Shown here: positions 4,519-11,943 of the stretch, piece after piece
How positions within the stretch are numbered: position 1 is the first letter of the stretch
How the letters are laid out: every line of letters begins with the position of its first letter
Assembly (NCBI GenBank): GCA_029259175.1
Contig: JAPDJH010000002.1
Coordinates: 64,001 to 128,000, forward strand
Reading direction: 5' to 3'
Length of the DNA: 64,000 bases
Source of the DNA: Hadesarchaea archaeon
GTDB lineage: Archaea; Hadarchaeota; Hadarchaeia; Hadarchaeales; Hadarchaeaceae
Program-made: the position numbers and the translations under genes
The notes under the pieces: generated by a model
Told to the model about the DNA's origin: nothing
The model's database searches: none
What the model saw: only the letters and a program-made list of their open reading frames with translations

Positions 4519-6066
4519 GTGTCCAGTATACTCGTGAAGCGCATCCGTTTGAGACTTAGACCCCTGGACATGGAAACCGGCCGCCACATAGTAGTGCTCC
4601 ACGAGCGGGACTCCCAGCAGCTGGGCCACATGCCGGGAAGCCGGATCAGGATAGGAGCCAATGGAAGAGAGTACGTGATGATCGCCAACGTTAGCGGTCG
4701 TTTGGTCGAACCCGGGGAGCTGGGCACGTTCATTGAGGCCACAGAGATTCTGGGATTGAAGCAGGGAGCGGAAGTGGAGGTCTCGCTTGCTCCGCAACCC
4801 GCTTCCATTTCAGCGATAAAGAAGAAGTTGCGCGGGGAAAGCCTCTCCGCCGAGGAAATTGGAACTATCGTCCGCGATATTGTTTCCAACAATCTTACGA
4901 CTACCGAGCTAACGGCTTTTATCGTTGCACAGTACACCCGTGGAATGTCGATGGAGGAAATAGTTGCTCTAACACGGCACATGGTAGAAACCGGCGAGAA
5001 ACTGGAGTTCGACACGAAACCCATTCTGGACGTCCACAGCATCGGCGGCGTTCCCGGAAACAAGTATGCCCTGCTGACCGTGCCCATTGTTTCAGCCGCC
5101 GGACTCAAAGTGCCGAAGACCAGCAGCAGGGCCATTACGAGCGCTGCGGGCACGGCGGATGTGATGGAGGTCTTGGCCCCCGTGGATCTGTCGCTGGAGG
5201 AAATCAAGCGAATAGTGAATCGTGTAGGGGCAGTGCTCGCGTGGGGGGGCGCCGTGCGACTTGCCCCCGCAGACGATATAATAATTCAGGTTGAACGCCA
5301 TCTCGGCATAGACCCTCGTTGCCAGCTCTTGGCTAGCGTCATGTCCAAAAAATTGGCCGTGGGTGCTGATCGGGTCGTCATCGACATCCCCACAGGTCTC
5401 GGGGCCAAAGTCTGTACGCGCGAAGAAGCCCGCGAGCTTGCCCACGACTTCATCGAGCTGGCCCGACGCGTGGACGTGCAGATGGAGGTGGCGGTGACCT
5501 ATGGCGGACAGCCCGTGGGCTACGCCGTGGGTCCAGCTCTCGAAGCAAAGGAAGCCCTCGAGGCGTTAAAAGGAGAGGGCCCGGGAAGTCTGATTGAGAA
5601 GGCCACGAGCCTCGCAGGCTTGATGCTTGAACTCGGCGAGGTGGCCCCACCCGGGCTGGGCAAGCAAATGGCCAAGGACATCTTGAGATCAGGACGTGCT
5701 CTGGAGCAGTTGCGAAAAATTATCGAGGCCCAGGGCGGGGATCCAAAGATCGATTCAGGTGATCTCCCGATAGGACAGTACAAGCAAGTGATAGAATCTC
5801 CAGCCTCCGGATATGTGAAACGCGTCTACAATGAGCGCATCAACGCCATAGCCCGAGCCGCTGGAGCGCCCATTGACAAAGGCGCAGGTGTTCGCATTCT
5901 CCTAAAAGAGGGGCGGAAGGTGGAACGCGGAGAACCTCTAGTAGAAATCTATGCCGAGCACGAGAACAAACTCGATGAGGCGATCGCGGTTGCCAAGCAA
6001 AACTTCCCGGTTCTGATCGAGGGGATGCTTTTGGAAAAACTCGCGCACCGCCCGCACCTAGAATGA
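4519..6066 (+). CDS. AMP phosphorylase (archaeal thymidine phosphorylase family)
   Basis: DVHSIGGVPGNK, PKTSSRAITSAAGTAD and SVMSKK motifs; N-terminal double-psi-barrel-like extension typical of AMP phosphorylase. Confidence 0.93.
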   Translation: MSSILVKRIRLRLRPLDMETGRHIVVLHERDSQQLGHMPGSRIRIGANGREYVMIANVSGRLVEPGELGTFIEATEILGLKQGAEVEVSLAPQPASISAIKKKLRGESLSAEEIGTIVRDIVSNNLTTTELTAFIVAQYTRGMSMEEIVALTRHMVETGEKLEFDTKPILDVHSIGGVPGNKYALLTVPIVSAAGLKVPKTSSRAITSAAGTADVMEVLAPVDLSLEEIKRIVNRVGAVLAWGGAVRLAPADDIIIQVERHLGIDPRCQLLASVMSKKLAVGADRVVIDIPTGLGAKVCTREEARELAHDFIELARRVDVQMEVAVTYGGQPVGYAVGPALEAKEALEALKGEGPGSLIEKATSLAGLMLELGEVAPPGLGKQMAKDILRSGRALEQLRKIIEAQGGDPKIDSGDLPIGQYKQVIESPASGYVKRVYNERINAIARAAGAPIDKGAGVRILLKEGRKVERGEPLVEIYAEHENKLDEAIAVAKQNFPVLIEGMLLEKLAHRPHLE

Positions 6067-6612
6067 TCAGAGAATGAAGACCGCAGCGGCCACGACGGTC
6101 GTCCACATCCCTTCCTTCACGAGCGCCGTCTGGGTGATGTTGGTAGTTCTGACTATCTTTCCCGAGATCTTCCATATCTGCTTTCTCTCATCCCAGCTTT
6201 TGTTTGGATCGAAGGGGAGCCCCAAGGAGCTCGCCAACATGGATGCTGCCAGATCCTCCGCGTACTCGCCCGCTTCCTTGGCTGTCTGACCGTATGCGTG
6301 GTGCTCACTGATGTAGCCAATGGTCTTCTTGTCGGCCGGTAGAGCACACCCGATGCTCGCCGATATCAGCCTTCGCCGCTCGTTGCTCGCACACCGCGAC
6401 ATCACCAAGAACACTATCTGACCATCGGACAGCATGGAGAGCGCTCTTTTTCTGGAGATGACCTTGCACCCCGGCGGCACTATGCTGGAGACCGGGACCA
6501 AGTTGAATCGGGCTATCCCGGCGTCCTCCAAGGCGTTCTCGAAAGATCTCAACATCTCTCTGTCGTGTCCCACACCCTTCGTTAGGAATAGATACTTGGG
6601 AACGAGGTTCAT
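6067..6612 (-). CDS. pdaD: pyruvoyl-dependent arginine decarboxylase
   Basis: SFENALEDAGIARFNLVPVSSI with the Ser-Ser self-cleavage site; GYISEH. Confidence 0.92.
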   Translation of the reverse strand: MNLVPKYLFLTKGVGHDREMLRSFENALEDAGIARFNLVPVSSIVPPGCKVISRKRALSMLSDGQIVFLVMSRCASNERRRLISASIGCALPADKKTIGYISEHHAYGQTAKEAGEYAEDLAASMLASSLGLPFDPNKSWDERKQIWKISGKIVRTTNITQTALVKEGMWTTVVAAAVFIL

Positions 6613-6621
6613 GCGAGTCCC

Positions 6622-8274
6622 TTATTCCTCTTCGCCGCCGCCCTCCTCTCCTCCGGGGGTCTCAGGGGACTTCGGGCCCTTCTCCTCCTTCTTGCTGGCC
6701 GCGATCACATCATCAATCCTCAGGATCATGATGGCAGCTTCGCTGGCGGACTTGATGGCCTGCGTTTTGGTTCTTAGCGGCTCAAGAACTCCGAGCTTCT
6801 TCATGTCCACAATTTTTCCGTTGTACACGTCGATTCCGTATGTCTTCCCATCCGGCTTTTCGTGCTTCGCCCTCAGCTCCACGAGCACATCGATCGCGTC
6901 TAGACCCGCGTTTTCCGCCAGAGTTTTCGGAATGACCTCCACCGCGTTGGCGAAGGCGTTGATGGCCAGCGCTTCCTTACCGCCAACCTTCTGGGCGTAG
7001 TTTCTAAGCTCCTTTGCGAGCTCCACTTCCGGAGCTCCACCTCCCATCACTATCTTCCCGTCCTCGATGGCTGCGGCCACTACCGAGAGCGCATCGTGAA
7101 GCGCGCGCTCGACCTCGTCCACCACGTGCTCGCTCCCACCGCGAACGAGGATTCCAACCGCCTTGGGGTTCTTGCACTTTCTCACGAAAGTCATTTTGTC
7201 CTCTCCAATCCTCACTTCCTCCACAAGCCCGGCGGATCCCAAGTCCTCAGCAGTGAGCTCCTCCAAGTTGTTGACTATGCGCCCCCCGGTGGCTCTGGCC
7301 AGCTTCTCCATATCGGATTTCTTCGCCCGCCTCACCGCATAGATTCCGGCTTTTGCCAAGTAGTGCTGTGCGATGTCATCGATCCCCTTCTGGCAGATTA
7401 CGACATTCGCTCCGGTGCTCACGATCTTGTCCACCATTTCTTTCAGGATCTTTTCTTCTTCCTCGATGAACGCGCGGAGTTGAGAAGGATCAGAAATTCG
7501 GATCTCCGCATCGGTTTCCGTCTTTTTGATTTCGAGCGGAGCGTCGATCAACGCAATCTTAGCGTCCTTCACTCGCTTGGGCATACCCGGGTGCACGCGC
7601 TCTTTGTCGACGATCACTCCCTCTACGAGTTCCGAATCAAAAGTGCTCTTGCCCGGTTTTTTCTCCACACCGATATAGTCGATGTCTATCACATAGCGGT
7701 CTCCCACTTTGTCGGCGATCTGCTTGACCGCCTTCACCGCCAGCTCCGCCAAGTATTCGCGGGCGCTTTCGGCCTTCTTTCCCGTCATGGCTGTCATGGC
7801 GATTTGCTTGAGGGTTTCCTCGTCCTCGATACTCACAGGGATAGCGACCTTGTTCAGAGTCTCCTGAGCCTTCTCGGCGGCCATCCGGTATCCAATCGCG
7901 ATTATAGTGGGGTGAATGGCCTGATCGAGCAGTTTCTCGGCTTCCTTTAGGAGCTCCCCGCCGATCACCACCGCGGTTGTGGTTCCATCACCCACCAGAT
8001 CATCCTGAGTTTTGGCAACCTCCACCATCATTTTTGCGGCTGGATGCTCTACCTCCATTTCCTTCAGAATGGTCACGCCGTCGTTTGTCACTATTACATC
8101 TCCCAGCGTGTCGACCAGCATCTTATCCATTCCACGGGGGCCGAGGGTGGTGCGAACAGCTTCGGCTATCACCCGGGCCGCCATGATGTTCATCCGCTGA
8201 GCATCACGCCCCACGGTCCGCCTCGTTCCCTCGGGCAGGATTAGAACTGGGCGTCCACCGAGTGTTGCACTCAT
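6622..8274 (-). CDS. ths: thermosome (group II chaperonin) subunit
   Basis: [20 protein letters not shown] and GGGAPE motifs; acidic Gly-rich tail; GAGGTGA RBS upstream. Confidence 0.98.
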
Positions 8275-8321
8275 AGAAATTCACCTCTATTTGTGAAGAT
8301 TTGGTCTCAGCCTTTTAAACT

Positions 8322-10775
8322 TTACGCTTGTTTTATTTCTGCGACTATCCTTCTCGCCGCTCTTTCTGGATTGCTGGTGTTGTATATCGCGCTCCCGGCT
8401 ATACAGATATCTGCACCGGCCCTCACAACCTCTTTTGCCACACCCTCTTTGATGCCGCCAGCGACGGCCAGCAGGAAGGGCCGGCACCGCTTTTTCGCTT
8501 CAGCGATGAGCGTGGTAGAATCGTAGATCCCTCTCCCCCTGAGTTGCTCGCTTATTCCTCGGTGCAGGCAGAATATCACGTGGTTTTCCCTTCCCTCAAA
8601 TTGTCTGGCGAGTTCTTCTATCAAGGCGATCGGGTCGGGACAATCGATGAAGTCGATGAGTATCGCTCTGTTCCACCTGATCGCCTCGCTGAGAGCTTCG
8701 AATATTTTGGTTCGTCCTCCGATGCCTAGAACGGCCGCTATGTCGGCTCCGGCCCTGAACGCGATCTTGGCCTCCAGATTTCCAACATCCATGGTTTTCA
8801 GATCCGCGACTATCAGCGCGTCTGGAGCCACCTTGCGGAGTTCTGGAATCAGACGATCGGTTCCGTGGCGTTTGAGGGCGGGCGTTCCCGCTTCAACGAT
8901 TTGAGCTCCGCCGCGATAAGCCGCGCGTGCTATCCTGACCACGGTTTTCAAATCCGCGTCTAGATCGAGGGCCACCTGAAGCGCCGGGCATCTGAGACGT
9001 TCGATTGGAGTGATCCCCACCGGAATCTCTTTTGCCCGCTTGGGTGTCTTTAACTTGAGCATTCTGCTCGGCACACCTCTCTTGCCCCATCCTCTGAGCT
9101 TGTAGTATCTTTGAAGCATTTGAGTGAGATCGAGCCCGAACTCCGCGGGTAGACGATCTTGGGCTGGTTCGAATCCCTCTCGCACGTTGAATCTCCGCTC
9201 TACGTCGTAGATACGCGCTCCCACCTCTCTCAGGTGTTTTTCCGTCCACATGACTCCAGTCAAAGCAGTGAGGAGCTCCGCGAAATCGTAGAGTTCGAAG
9301 TCCAAGGTGGAGAAGAGCGCCAGCGAATGATATTTGCACACGACCAGAGAATCGTAAACTGCCGACGCGTCTTGCAGTCGCTTCACCAGCTCGGGCTTGC
9401 CGTCTTCCGTTTGTGGATCCACGAACTCCGGATGGCCTAGAATCTCGGGGTCTATCGTGTACGCCCGCAGATGACATCCGCCGCGATTCGAAGTGGCGTA
9501 GGCGAGCGCTATTCCCTTTGCACCGCGGGGGTCATAAGCCGGGAGTTCTAGCTTTTTGCAATGAGGAACGAAGACCTTCAGCTTGAGCTTCTTTGCTGCT
9601 GCGACGGTTCCGAGAGAAAACGGAGACTTGCCGCGCCCGATGTCGTTCACCAGCCGAACCGCATCTTCAAAATTTCTGCAAATTCCAGCCTTCCTCGCCA
9701 CTCCGAGCGCAACACCCATCGATATGGTGTCGAGCCCCAGTTCATCGCAGATGGCGCTGAGCTTGGCAATCTGCTGGTAATCGAAGAAGCCGGCGTTGGG
9801 CCCAAGCATGACGATGCTTTCATATTCCGGTCCCTTTCCTTCCCAATTCTTGACCCGCACCCAGCGCCCGCAGCCAGTGGGACAGCCGAAGCAGGCGATT
9901 TTTTTGACCAGGTATCGTTCGCGCACCGTTTCGCCTGAGAACGGATCCACATCTTCGAAGCTCAGTTCCTTTCCGGAAAAATTCCAGGCTGGCAGCAATC
10001 CGCCCGCTGTGATGCGGTGGACGAGCATCGCGGTTCCGAAGCGAGCCAGGGTGCCATCTGTTCCCGTTATCGGATTGGTTTCTATGACTTTTCGCACCCG
10101 AGTGAGAATTTTCTGAAATTCGGGTGGATGAGCCACAGGCACGCGCTTGGTACCCCGCACGACAACGGCTTTGAGGTTTTTGGAACCCATCACGGCTCCC
10201 CCTCCGCATCGCCCGGCCACCCCCATCCGCCCTTCCCGGTTTCCCGTGACTACACACGCCATTCGGGCTAGGTTTTCACCTGCTGGTCCAATGGTTGCGA
10301 TAGAGAACTGCGGGTAACGGTCAAGCAGCTCCTCGATGGTCTCCAAAGTCGACTTGCCCCAGAGTTCCGTGGCGTCGTGTAGGGTGACTTTGTCGTCATC
10401 GATTTCAATATAGACCGGTTTTTTGCTTCTTCCCTGAACGATCAGCCCGTCGAAACCCGCCCGTTTGAGCCAAGCTCCGAAGAAGCCGCCCATGGACGAA
10501 TCAGCTATGGTACCCGTTAGCGGGGACTTGAAAACCACAGCTGTTCGTCCGCTTCCGGGAAAGGGTGTTCCGGTCAGCGGGCCCGTCATGAAAATCAAGC
10601 GATTAGCGGGTCCGAGTGGACCGGTTCCTCGTTTTAGCTCACGGTAAAGAATCCATGCGCCGTACCCTCTGCCACCCAAAAAATTGAACGCGATTTTCGG
10701 ATCGAGCAGTTCCGTGTTTATGGTTCCTGAATTCAAATCCACTCTCAGGAGTTTCCCGGCATAGCCACCCTTCAT
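8322..10775 (-). CDS. aldehyde:ferredoxin oxidoreductase (tungstopterin AOR family) fused to a C-terminal 3-hexulose-6-phosphate synthase domain
   Basis: About aa 1-575 is AOR-like (LRVDL, GGRG, KSPLTG, GPAGE, GAVMGSKNLKA, CFGCPTGC, EYE, DELGLDTIS, RGGCHL). About aa 599-817 is HPS-like (LQVALD, EAGTP, IVADLKTMDVGNLEA, HRGI, VAGGI, GSAI). Confidence 0.92.
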   Translation of the reverse strand: MKGGYAGKLLRVDLNSGTINTELLDPKIAFNFLGGRGYGAWILYRELKRGTGPLGPANRLIFMTGPLTGTPFPGSGRTAVVFKSPLTGTIADSSMGGFFGAWLKRAGFDGLIVQGRSKKPVYIEIDDDKVTLHDATELWGKSTLETIEELLDRYPQFSIATIGPAGENLARMACVVTGNREGRMGVAGRCGGGAVMGSKNLKAVVVRGTKRVPVAHPPEFQKILTRVRKVIETNPITGTDGTLARFGTAMLVHRITAGGLLPAWNFSGKELSFEDVDPFSGETVRERYLVKKIACFGCPTGCGRWVRVKNWEGKGPEYESIVMLGPNAGFFDYQQIAKLSAICDELGLDTISMGVALGVARKAGICRNFEDAVRLVNDIGRGKSPFSLGTVAAAKKLKLKVFVPHCKKLELPAYDPRGAKGIALAYATSNRGGCHLRAYTIDPEILGHPEFVDPQTEDGKPELVKRLQDASAVYDSLVVCKYHSLALFSTLDFELYDFAELLTALTGVMWTEKHLREVGARIYDVERRFNVREGFEPAQDRLPAEFGLDLTQMLQRYYKLRGWGKRGVPSRMLKLKTPKRAKEIPVGITPIERLRCPALQVALDLDADLKTVVRIARAAYRGGAQIVEAGTPALKRHGTDRLIPELRKVAPDALIVADLKTMDVGNLEAKIAFRAGADIAAVLGIGGRTKIFEALSEAIRWNRAILIDFIDCPDPIALIEELARQFEGRENHVIFCLHRGISEQLRGRGIYDSTTLIAEAKKRCRPFLLAVAGGIKEGVAKEVVRAGADICIAGSAIYNTSNPERAARRIVAEIKQA

Positions 10776-10776
10776 T

Positions 10777-10790
10777 TAACCATATGGTTA
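10777..10790. promoter_or_regulatory. perfect 14-bp palindrome (TAACCATATGGTTA), candidate operator of the AOR-HPS promoter
   Basis: Sits between a minus-strand TATA-like TTTTAGATA (about 10798-10806) and the ATG at 10775, in the divergent region shared with the GH15 gene. Confidence 0.5.
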
Positions 10791-10842
10791 TCACCGTTAT
10801 CTAAAAAGACATTTGCAGACGGAGTAGTGTTGGTGGCCAGCA

Positions 10843-11943
10843 GTGGAGGAATTTTTGAGAAAAGCGCGAGTTCTTCTTCGCGAAACCAAGCGGGTGTTCG
10901 CTGATTGCGCGACCAAGAGTGGCGGGATCCTGGCAGCCAATCCAGCCAAGCCGTATTATCCGAGAGGGGCTGCGAACTACGGGTATGTGTGGGTACGGGA
11001 CGCGTCTTTTGTTTGTGTCGCTGCGGACGTGTTGGAGTTGGGAATTCAGGAAAAGTTCTTTGAGTGGTGCATGCGGGCTGAGCGCTTTCCGGGAACCACA
11101 CTCTTTTGTCGCCGCTATCACCCGGATGGAACGGCTCTGGCCGCGGGCGAGGGCCTCGGAGGCGAAATCGAGAACCAGCTCCAGCCGGATCAGGCGGGGG
11201 CCCTGTTGTGGGCGCTGTGGCACCACTTCAGGGAGGATCCGTCAGAGGCGAGGGACTTCCGGCCGCTGATTCGCGAAGTTGCGGATGGGTTGTGCGAACT
11301 CTGGAAAAAGAACAGGTTTGACATGGTGGTGTTCGATGTGTGGGAGGAGCAGGCTGCCTTTCCAGACCTCGATGAGTTTTTTTCTTACACACTCGCGGCC
11401 TGTGCTGGTGGTCTCAGATATGCAGGCGCTCTGTTTCCGAATCCGCGCTGGCAAAAAACAGCGGATCAAATGGTCTCGGTTTTAAGAAGAACTCCCGGAA
11501 AGCGGTTTTTCCGAAGTTATGGGCGGATACCCGATCCGGAGGTGGACGCCTCTCTGCTTGGGTTGGTGTTCCCGTTTGAGGTTTTCTCACATGCTCATCC
11601 GAAAATCCGAAGGACGATTGCCGATATCGAGAAGGAGCTAGTGATCGGCGGAGGGCTTCATCGCTACCCCGGCGATAGATACGATGGCTGGGTGTACGAG
11701 GGAAAGATGTTGAGGCAGAAGGGCGGGGGCGCGTGGCCGCTGCTCAACTTTTGGCTGAGCGTGTGCCACGCGCGGGCAGGGAACAAGAGGAGGGCTCTTC
11801 GGTATGCGCGGTGGGTGCTTCGGCGCGTGAACAGACACATTCCGGAGCAGATTTTCCCTAATCGGTTGCAGGTTTCTCCATCTCCTCTGGCTTGGGCGCA
11901 CGCCATGTTTGTGCTGGCCATGCGAGAACTCAGGATCGTGTGA
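10843..11943 (+). CDS. glycoside hydrolase family 15 (glucoamylase-like) catalytic domain protein
   Basis: YGYVWVRD, QPDQ, DVWEE, VDASLL, RYPGDRY, W and PEQ...PLAWAHA motifs of the GH15 (alpha/alpha)6 barrel. Confidence 0.9.
   Translation: MEEFLRKARVLLRETKRVFADCATKSGGILAANPAKPYYPRGAANYGYVWVRDASFVCVAADVLELGIQEKFFEWCMRAERFPGTTLFCRRYHPDGTALAAGEGLGGEIENQLQPDQAGALLWALWHHFREDPSEARDFRPLIREVADGLCELWKKNRFDMVVFDVWEEQAAFPDLDEFFSYTLAACAGGLRYAGALFPNPRWQKTADQMVSVLRRTPGKRFFRSYGRIPDPEVDASLLGLVFPFEVFSHAHPKIRRTIADIEKELVIGGGLHRYPGDRYDGWVYEGKMLRQKGGGAWPLLNFWLSVCHARAGNKRRALRYARWVLRRVNRHIPEQIFPNRLQVSPSPLAWAHAMFVLAMRELRIV

Follow-up and report, generated by a model that had tools for sequence, protein, structure and literature searches.

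Here, we report that a 64,000-nt stretch of DNA from a Hadesarchaea archaeon (GCA_029259175.1, contig JAPDJH010000002.1, positions 64,001-128,000 of the forward strand; hereafter the window, to which all positions refer) encodes an enzyme of the aldehyde oxidoreductase (AOR) family that is fused in one frame to a barrel of the hexulose-6-phosphate synthase (HPS) type. We propose, with a probability of roughly 0.6, that this AOR-HPS protein is an HPS of the reversed ribulose monophosphate (RuMP) pathway whose released formaldehyde would be oxidised to formate by the fused AOR. The proposal builds on the domain architecture, the conservation of catalytic positions, the monophyly of the fused AOR modules, the co-occurrence with PHI, the complementarity to Fae and a genome in which no other pentose route was matched. 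Next to Fae-HPS and HPS-PHI, AOR-HPS apparently constitutes a third, undescribed kind of HPS fusion, one whose partner domain would dispose of the by-product. The gene and its modules are arranged as follows:

8322-10775, minus strand: whole AOR-HPS gene, ATG start, 817 aa plus stop codon, no internal stop
10149-10757, minus strand: AFOR_N domain, residues 7-209 (Pfam PF02730, E 1.4e-80, 270.2 bits, cut-off 29.8)
9063-10109, minus strand: AFOR_C (AOR domains 2 and 3), residues 223-571 (Pfam PF01314, E 8.1e-93, 312 bits, cut-off 27)
8985-9062, minus strand: basic, proline-containing linker, residues 572-597, between the Pfam domains and bridged by contigs of the public runs X5 and X6
8325-8984, minus strand: HPS-type TIM barrel, residues 598-817 (PF00215, OMPdecase/HUMPS, residues 598-810, E 1.2e-24)

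The observation of the fusion is confirmed; neither chance nor an assembly artefact accounts for it. The original prediction had described an uninterrupted 817-aa open reading frame (ORF), and indeed Pfam places AFOR_N, AFOR_C and OMPdecase in a single frame. All of the motifs quoted there were recovered in the translation at the places given for them (C295-x2-C298-x3-C302 with C480, E317-Y-E319, C343-DELGLD, L599-QVALD, E628-AGTP, A657-DLKTMDVGNLE), the HPS barrel it drew at nt 8325-8981 corresponds to residues 599-817, and the basic, proline-containing linker it described does separate the Pfam domains. Is this architecture found elsewhere? A search with residues 585-817 among database proteins of 449-1430 aa gave 84 matches, and 75 of them share AFOR_N, AFOR_C and OMPdecase; with residues 1-575 as the query, the OMPdecase domain was also present in 111 of the best 120 matches listed. 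Near-identical DNA occurs in public runs of three studies; by their labels, these runs are metagenomes from hydrothermal vents and marine sediment. The integrity of the linker, on which the prediction depended, held up in a contig from an independent study (run X6, 3177 bases), which spans 8200-10900 with 0 gaps and 35 substitutions, and in an X5 contig (8870-9276), which crosses the linker with 0 differences. The 35 changed codons of the X6 contig are synonymous in 21 cases and non-synonymous in 14, with 0 new stops. As judged from these sequences, the fusion genuinely exists, recurs and evolves under purifying selection.

We distinguished two groups of fusions, the window's own group 1 (52-76% identical over full length) and group 2 (~43-48% identical), and aligned 114 full-length fusions (alignment A2). 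The positions on which catalysis would depend are located as follows:

9870-9893, minus strand: C295-x2-C298-x3-C302, three of four putative [4Fe-4S] cysteines, invariant in 114/114 fusions and aligned to the same motif in 9mqx and 1aor
9336-9338, minus strand: C480, distal fourth cysteine, invariant in 114/114 fusions
9819-9827, minus strand: E317-Y-E319, AOR active-site motif, E317 and E319 invariant, aligned to GPEYE of 1aor and 9mqx
9471-9473, minus strand: H435 in the motif NRGGCH, AOR active-site histidine, invariant and aligned to NRGGCH of 1aor and 9mqx
8787-8804, minus strand: D658-x-K660-x-x-D663, the suprafamily DxKxxD motif, invariant in the 114 fusions and in the canonical HPS set compared
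8550-8564, minus strand: H738-R-G-I-S742, conserved His (H738 invariant) followed by a group-specific Ser

All 114 fusions retain C295, C298, C302, C480, E317, E319, H435, D349 and D475 in the AOR module, where D349 and D475 belong to two pterin-binding Asp motifs that align to the corresponding motifs in 1aor and 9mqx. The four cysteines are presumably the ligands of the [4Fe-4S] cluster, and we take the roles of E317, H435, D349 and D475 to be those known for the Pyrococcus furiosus AOR. In the HPS module, Q600, A602, D604, E628, G630, T631, P632, K635, D658, K660, D663, E668, D678, D708 and H738 are invariant, and the catalytic and metal-binding core (E628, D658, K660, D663, H738) is conserved in all HPS groups compared, with roles assigned by homology to the KGPDC residues K64, E112 and H136 named in titles of Protein Data Bank (PDB) entries. 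Both modules thus look catalytically competent.

The N-terminal module belongs to the AOR family: both Pfam domains score over their gathering thresholds, and the four cysteines, the active-site Glu and His and the three-domain fold are all present. Compared with all PDB sequences, it is closest to 9mqx_D (424 bits), the P. furiosus AOR 1aor (403 bits) and 9g7j (392 bits), followed by 8c0z (346 bits) and WOR83 (343 bits), with lower scores for the formaldehyde oxidoreductase FOR 1b25 (299 bits) and for WOR5 (169 bits). The NCBIfam equivalog PRK09849 was matched over the N-terminal 227 residues only, at 216.8 bits against a cut-off of 868. With the AORs sensu stricto (1aor; 9mqx; 9g7j of C. autoethanogenum) the module shares the three-domain fold (TM(target) 0.88-0.89, rmsd 1.9-2.2 Å, 37-41% identity) as well as the cluster and active-site motifs. 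In contrast to the fusion, these are stand-alone chains of ~605 aa, and they keep, as do the group 2 fusions, two stretches that group 1 has lost. In the group 1 fusions, including that of the window, ~17-19 residues are missing around 362-405 (nt ~9561-9692), as is a ~13-residue loop after P543-F546 (nt ~9135-9149), whose consensus in solved AORs and group 2 is EPxPxGPxKG. These losses might change the shape of the dimer surface or of the substrate entrance. FOR of P. furiosus is a member of the same family that oxidises formaldehyde in vitro, but it is more distant from the module (299 vs 403-424 bits) and not fused. The Thermoanaerobacter X514 AOR acts on formaldehyde with a Km of 93 µM and a Vmax of 25 U/mg, as listed in Table 2 of PMC10816221; formaldehyde can be a good substrate for enzymes of the AOR clade.

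The C-terminal domain is, by its sequence relationships, of the HPS type and not a KGPDC or OMPDC: among PDB chains it matched 9lj9, an HPS-PHI chain, at 113.8 bits and the Mycobacterium gastri HPS 3ajx at 101.6 bits, against 41.7 bits for OMPDC and 32.4 bits for KGPDC, and the model TIGR03128 (RuMP_HxlA) was matched over positions 1-202 of 205. The original prediction had likened this HPS to the Fae-Hps type. That resemblance turned out not to be specific: the domain lies in a long-branch clade of its own, and three NCBIfam models that contain an HPS half score alike on it, namely PRK07028 (HPS/RraA-like, 142.1 bits), PRK13307 (Fae-HPS, 139.7 bits) and NF041755 (HPS-PHI, 138.8 bits). The ORF has no Fae match (PF08714), PRK13307 being matched in its HPS half only and far under its cut-off of 274, and no SIS/PHI match in Pfam, the cut-off of NF041755 being 500.

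We next consider the genome from which the window derives (1.31 Mb, 23 contigs, 90.9% complete). The fusion is its only HPS match. A check for phi, suggested with the original prediction, found a stand-alone 198-aa PHI gene on another contig (198.5 bits, cut-off 160), and the parallel check for fae gave no match in this genome. RpiA is present (226 bits), and no transaldolase and no transketolase_N were matched at the given completeness. Since transketolase and transaldolase matches are missing from this genome, HPS would be needed in the cleavage direction for the supply of pentoses.

Accordingly phrased as a pathway, the proposal runs as follows. The separately encoded PHI would convert fructose-6-P to hexulose-6-P, which the C-terminal HPS barrel would cleave, yielding ribulose-5-P together with formaldehyde. 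Formaldehyde would be oxidised to formate by the pterin/[4Fe-4S] AOR module at the N-terminus, which would transfer two electrons via its cluster to ferredoxin and so give two reduced ferredoxin equivalents, and RpiA would then turn ribulose-5-P into ribose-5-P. We read formaldehyde as the substrate of the AOR because fusions usually join consecutive steps and because it is the only aldehyde among the products of HPS cleavage. The fusion would impose a 1:1 stoichiometry and proximity, remove a toxic product and pull an equilibrium that favours condensation toward cleavage. A very low-potential oxidation is practically irreversible and would exert such a pull on the aldol cleavage; the redox potentials and the HPS equilibrium behind it belong to general background. 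The AOR module would act in the role that Fae has in Fae-HPS, but without a C1 carrier. In this scheme the substrates and the direction are inferred, and so are the electron acceptor, the identity of the metal (W or Mo) and a direct transfer of formaldehyde, if there is one.

How widespread is the fusion among the relatives of this archaeon? We analysed 66 genomes of the window's phylum; the nearest relatives of the fusion carry Hadarchaeota labels. The HPS domain of the fusion subtype is present in 26 of the 66 genomes. Twenty of them are fused, 19 with frames of at least 800 aa and one (G058) cut by the contig start, and these fused genomes hold PHI in 19 cases, Fae in one (G058) and Mch in none. 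A second HPS above 45 bits was not found in 19 of the 20. The subtype stands alone in G043, G028 and G052 and is cut by contig ends in G029 and G045. In G006 (C14:11894-12549), the HPS contains a frame break, with a 680-aa frame (HPS positions 1-61) followed by a 185-aa frame (60-203), which points to an assembly error or a pseudogene. Fae occurs in the phylum only as Fae-HPS, in 7 genomes, 6 of them with Mch. A canonical stand-alone HPS above 200 bits was found in 11 genomes, which have no AOR fusion and, in the five whose flanks were inspected, no AOR nearby. The genera g9, g18 and g19 (14 genomes) have neither HPS nor PHI. All of these counts come from genomes that are related to one another and are therefore not independent events. 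A distinct HPS-like protein was seen in genus g6 (G013, G016, G022, G024, G025; e.g. G025:C1:761384-762004, L019), where it is 216 aa long in G024 and 238 aa long in the other four; it reaches only 53-63 bits with TIGR03128 and 31 bits with the profile of the fusion HPS. No PHI was detected at E <= 1e-20 in these g6 genomes, of which G022 and G025 have Mch.

As an independent replicate, we analysed a sample of 251 Bathyarchaeia genomes, 19 of which carry AOR and HPS matches in one frame of 752-905 aa. Fae is present in 2 of the 19 carriers (G085, G115) vs 144 of the 232 others. The suggestion that the AOR replaces Fae therefore fits the phyletic pattern in two lineages, with Fae in 1/20 fused genomes within the window's phylum and 2/19 carriers among the Bathyarchaeia. 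At 200.0-207.1 bits, eight HPS domains from fused Bathyarchaeia proteins attain the TIGR03128 cut-off. As to whether the two halves of a fission stay side by side, the contig ends just after the AOR in G143, and the gene in G154 is a plain non-fused AOR.

In a tree of AOR modules, groups 1 and 2 form one clade (SH-aLRT 93), apart from the four AOR paralogues of the genome and from two 598-aa relatives, and non-fused AOR forms of 562-571 aa nest inside group 1. A wider FastTree analysis with 78 non-fused AORs, 70 of them added from a scan of species genomes, again united 27/27 fused modules and 3 fission forms in one clade (local support 97), such that the label fused or non-fused changes only twice on the tree. 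Among these fused modules are proteins from Methanomethylicales, Methanosuratincola, Bathyarchaeia and Asgard-labelled sources as well as three AOR-HPS-HPS proteins. In the HPS tree, the group 1 clade (support 100, stem length 0.59) also includes stand-alone forms and forms of ~600 aa, five of each, and group 2 nests within the archaeal HPS/HPS-PHI cluster. A single clade of fusion-type HPS domains, which has a log-likelihood 26 higher than that of a short free search, was not rejected in the approximately unbiased (AU) test (p-AU 0.80). A first AU test (p 0.0285) was disregarded because its constraint omitted P0097 and P0098, which nest inside group 2. With one AOR clade and one HPS clade that is not rejected, both modules are compatible with a single old fusion that has been maintained since. 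The source records of the family are labelled Hadarchaeota, Bathyarchaeia, Nezhaarchaeales, Methanomethylicales, several Asgard groups and, for some metagenome-assembled genomes (MAGs), DPANN.

Later changes would include fissions, loss or degeneration of the AOR (the latter in P0066) and duplication of the HPS (P0094). In P0066, P0068, P0089 and P0090 (602-610 aa) and P0067 (666 aa), ~380-435 residues before the HPS are without a Pfam match or have a weak AFOR_N. P0066 aligns to the family only from residue 459 of the window's protein on, a span that comprises the end of AOR domain 3 together with linker and HPS, and these ~600-aa forms look like a degenerate AOR kept as a scaffold. Two HPS-like barrels lie behind one AOR in the ~1000-aa AOR-HPS-HPS proteins (P0094 with 992 aa; L048:425-3421, L058:4393-7416, L063:305-3370), which stem from MAGs labelled Nanohalarchaeota, Aenigmatarchaeota and 'uncultured archaeon'. 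G070 (0.9 Mb), the genome behind locus L063, has no PHI match.

A series of our observations weighs against formaldehyde oxidation coupled to HPS cleavage. On the side of the barrel, the HPS part reaches 132.5-136.5 bits on TIGR03128, under the curated cut-off of 200. Most columns that are at least 80% conserved in 25 canonical HPS keep their consensus in group 1, with 8 flagged as different, and the changes include canonically conserved positions: D742->S, a variable R718 and T690->K. At position 742, S is found in 89% of group 1 vs D in 100% of the 25 canonical HPS. Taken together with the long stem of the group 1 clade (0.59), these changes may mean that the group 1 barrel has drifted to another sugar-phosphate/aldehyde pair and that the AOR oxidises that other aldehyde, and four Bathyarchaeia carriers of the group 1 type (G075, G087, G093, G099) do retain a separate canonical HPS. 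Such a drift is, however, hard to reconcile with the intact metal-binding and catalytic core, with PHI in 19 of the 20 fused phylum genomes, with no other HPS in 19 of these 20 and with the eight fused Bathyarchaeia domains at 200.0-207.1 bits, and we regard it as quite unlikely.

On the side of the AOR, broad-range AORs (424 and 403 bits) are closer relatives of the module than FOR (299 bits), and any preference for formaldehyde would be putative. The tungstate-binding protein WtpA was not found in the window's genome, where TupA and ModA were not searched. Coupling is also not obligatory: G043, G028 and G052 hold the HPS subtype as a stand-alone gene without an AOR in the flanks. In G043 (C4:32752-33390, L010), which belongs to the window's genus and is 95% complete, the stand-alone HPS has 242 aa and is 57% identical, and no AOR-family match was obtained with the AOR query; G028 and G052 hold only paralogues of 46% and 35%. 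Close relatives can thus do without the AOR module or, as G043 lacks both, without any AOR. One could argue from the kinship with broad-range AORs, from the repeated emergence of fission forms (562-571 aa AOR alone) and of stand-alone HPS, and from the AOR remnant kept in the ~600-aa forms that the fusion sets only stoichiometry or stability by co-expression, with an AOR that works on general aldehydes (e.g. in 2-keto-acid metabolism) and no kinetic link. We give this explanation a small chance: the clade of fused AORs is separate, old and retained across several archaeal phyla, in two lineages the fusion and Fae show complementary distributions, and the five AFOR_C matches of the window's genome comprise, next to the fusion, four other AOR paralogues for general duties.

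Further points concern the metabolic setting. Among the Bathyarchaeia, Mch is present in 15 of the 19 carriers (172 of the 232 others). The original prediction had placed the fusion in a methanopterin-independent setting, which agrees with the window's phylum (Mch in 0/20 fused genomes) and fails in the Bathyarchaeia. We therefore rejected, as a general rule, the notion that the fusion marks genomes without tetrahydromethanopterin (H4MPT); in Bathyarchaeia it is not tied to the loss of that pathway. Moreover, 6 of the 19 carriers hold a second, canonical HPS gene, in five cases within frames of 436-453 aa (227-235 bits) and in G093 as a 181-aa piece (205 bits). By these gene inventories, the fusion is an alternative to Fae that, in Bathyarchaeia, is not always the sole HPS and not a marker of the absence of the H4MPT pathway. 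A formate sink was not found in the window's genome, in which Fdh-alpha and PurP (PF06973) gave no match and PurT reached 63 bits against a cut-off of 502. We accordingly dropped, for this genome, the idea that formate feeds formate-dependent purine enzymes. Across the flanks compared, no pathway-related neighbour of the fusion is conserved between lineages. Contigs from RNA libraries (X9, X12) cover 8300-8566, 8548-8700, 8742-9002, 9170-9339, 9556-9760 and 9745-9950, and thereby parts of both modules. None of them bridges the linker, and DNA carry-over in such libraries is possible, so that they need not reflect a fused message.

Does the enzyme protect from formaldehyde rather than relay it? 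The fusion might be a sink with two outlets, in which both modules draw on free formaldehyde of environmental or metabolic origin: HPS fixes it onto ribulose-5-P and the AOR oxidises the rest. HPS is reversible and widely read as detoxifying (PMC8065059), the runs with this DNA come, by their labels, from hydrothermal vents and marine sediment, and the canonical HPS in 6/19 Bathyarchaeia carriers could serve biosynthesis. Against this, the fusion is the sole HPS in its own genome and in 19 of the 20 fused phylum genomes, and its own genome, without transketolase and transaldolase matches, needs cleavage for pentoses. We consider such a sink unlikely. In the assimilatory direction, which the original prediction also raised and which none of our observations favours, strongly reduced ferredoxin would drive the AOR from formate to formaldehyde, which HPS would immediately trap as hexulose-6-P. 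The condensation by HPS is favourable, but the reduction of formate by ferredoxin is uphill. No Fdh-alpha was matched in the genome that would make formate from CO2, there is no evidence of C1 growth, and the genome needs the opposite direction for its pentoses. Although AORs are described in PMC9295118 as unique among known enzymes in reducing non-activated acids, assimilation by this route seems to us highly improbable. We hence retain oxidation of HPS-derived formaldehyde as the preferred reading.

Are the two modules also spatially coordinated? An AF2 model of the whole chain, built on the 114 fusions, has a mean pLDDT of 94.1 and a pTM of 0.90; the linker blocks score 87 and 80, and the only stretch below 50 is the loop after H738 (residues 742-744). 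Given a pTM of 0.90 for a chain of 575 + 220 residues, the predictor is confident about module placement, and the model thus suggests a defined relative arrangement of the AOR (575 residues) and HPS (220 residues) modules. It superimposes on 9mqx_D and 1aor_A with a TM(target) of 0.89 and an rmsd of 1.9 Å. Foldseek retrieved AOR chains (TM(target) 0.85-0.89) and HPS chains (0.87-0.88; 3ajx 0.87) separately; no solved chain in its results spans both modules, the best query-normalised TM being 0.66. Docked as separate chains and without controls, the two modules scored 0.17 and 0.15 against a mark of 0.32, a result that we weigh in neither direction. The pTM, the group-specific loop deletions of the AOR and the retention of the end of AOR domain 3 together with the linker in the degenerate forms would allow a fixed interface. 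An extension of our proposal would be a closed intramolecular path between the sites, in which formaldehyde stays within the protein throughout; with both half-reactions reversible, strongly reduced ferredoxin would let the enzyme convert formate to formaldehyde and fix it directly onto ribulose-5-P. We deem this very unlikely; if both the closed path and the reversal were true, a single natural protein would bring formate into the sugar phosphates.

How does AOR-HPS relate to known HPS fusions? The Fae-HPS of methanogens (PRK13307) likewise joins an HPS barrel to an enzyme that takes formaldehyde, and it is the phyletic alternative to the AOR fusion. Its partner, in contrast, needs tetrahydromethanopterin and conserves the C1 unit, whereas the ~575-aa pterin/[4Fe-4S] oxidoreductase of AOR-HPS would burn it to formate and yield reduced ferredoxin. 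Among solved structures, the HPS-PHI of Thermococcales (9lj9, RuMP_HxlAB) is closest to the HPS domain, and it belongs to the same pathway, reversed for pentoses. There, however, HPS is joined to PHI, the preceding enzyme, and not to a consumer of the by-product; here PHI is a separate gene. The HPS-MenG/RraA-like fusion (PRK07028; Mhun0647) is another natural HPS fusion and gives the top NCBIfam score for the HPS part (142.1 bits), yet its partner domain, according to PMC5241800, has no known function, and AOR-HPS contains no such domain. Kono et al. name Fae-HPS and HPS-MenG (PMC5241800), and the body text of a survey of archaeal gene fusions and fissions mentions only Hps-Phi (PMC11237513). 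The original claim that the architecture is undescribed has stood so far, as we found no description of AOR-HPS in the full-text literature, a search whose reach does not extend to supplements, subscription journals and domain-architecture databases.

Most enzymes of the AOR family have no assigned physiological substrate. The fusion may serve as a Rosetta stone that ties an entire AOR clade to one defined metabolite, namely formaldehyde from HPS. Archaea that run the RuMP pathway in reverse must dispose of one formaldehyde per pentose, for which the published answer in methanogens is Fae: in the statement of PMC5241800 on pentose formation, the fused Fae of Fae-HPS 'might immediately capture formaldehyde' that is released. 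For lineages without Fae, separately encoded AORs have been suggested in general terms; papers on Brockarchaeota and Atabeyarchaeia propose them for formaldehyde oxidation (PMC8065059, PMC11291895). A single recombinant AOR-HPS makes this idea testable. The family is widespread in uncultured archaea, and public databases name its members generically, for which reason metabolic reconstructions probably mis-score the fusion as 'an AOR' or 'an HPS'. Should the reaction be reversible, it would be of interest for engineering formate assimilation.

Finally, we looked at the surroundings of the gene. The fusion is flanked by genes for a thermosome subunit, a pyruvoyl arginine decarboxylase, a protein of the thymidine/AMP-phosphorylase family, a GH15-like protein and a rhomboid, none of them from the pathway. 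The phosphorylase-family protein (515 aa) lies downstream of the fusion, beyond the arginine decarboxylase and the thermosome subunit (window 4519-6066 on the plus strand, 6067-6612 and 6622-8274 on the minus strand); by its length and N-terminal extension it may be akin to the archaeal AMP phosphorylase of the pentose-bisphosphate route. On contig C6 of the same genome, a 658-aa AOR paralogue adjoins MoeA, the pterin metal insertase (L009:4147-9598), and PHI, which has the same orientation, lies ~1.6 kb beyond, separated from them by an Rce1-like gene and a small p27-like one.

A true PHI was found in the flanks of none of the 25 fused loci. Directly downstream of one Hadarchaeota fusion (L026:3286-3819, the same match in L037), a 399-aa frame contains a SIS-like stretch that is 34% identical to the PHI of the window's genome; the genome of L026 has no PHI at E <= 1e-20. 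PanB (PF02548, E 2.7e-116), which likewise handles a C1 unit at the oxidation level of formaldehyde, is divergently oriented and adjoins the fusion in 11 of 18 phylum loci (L020-L036; e.g. L034:8172-9071, plus strand), and it is also beside the fusion in L038 (5142-5942, minus strand). We set PanB aside as a functional neighbour and read it as lineage synteny, since it is not beside the fusion in the window nor in 8 fused loci of other lineages. In the Methanosuratincola locus L042, the group 2 fusion is followed downstream by fumarate hydratase alpha/beta and immediately preceded by a 96-aa gene of the ThiS/MoaD family (5594-5884, minus strand), a sulfur-carrier-like gene that may relate to the synthesis of the pterin cofactor.

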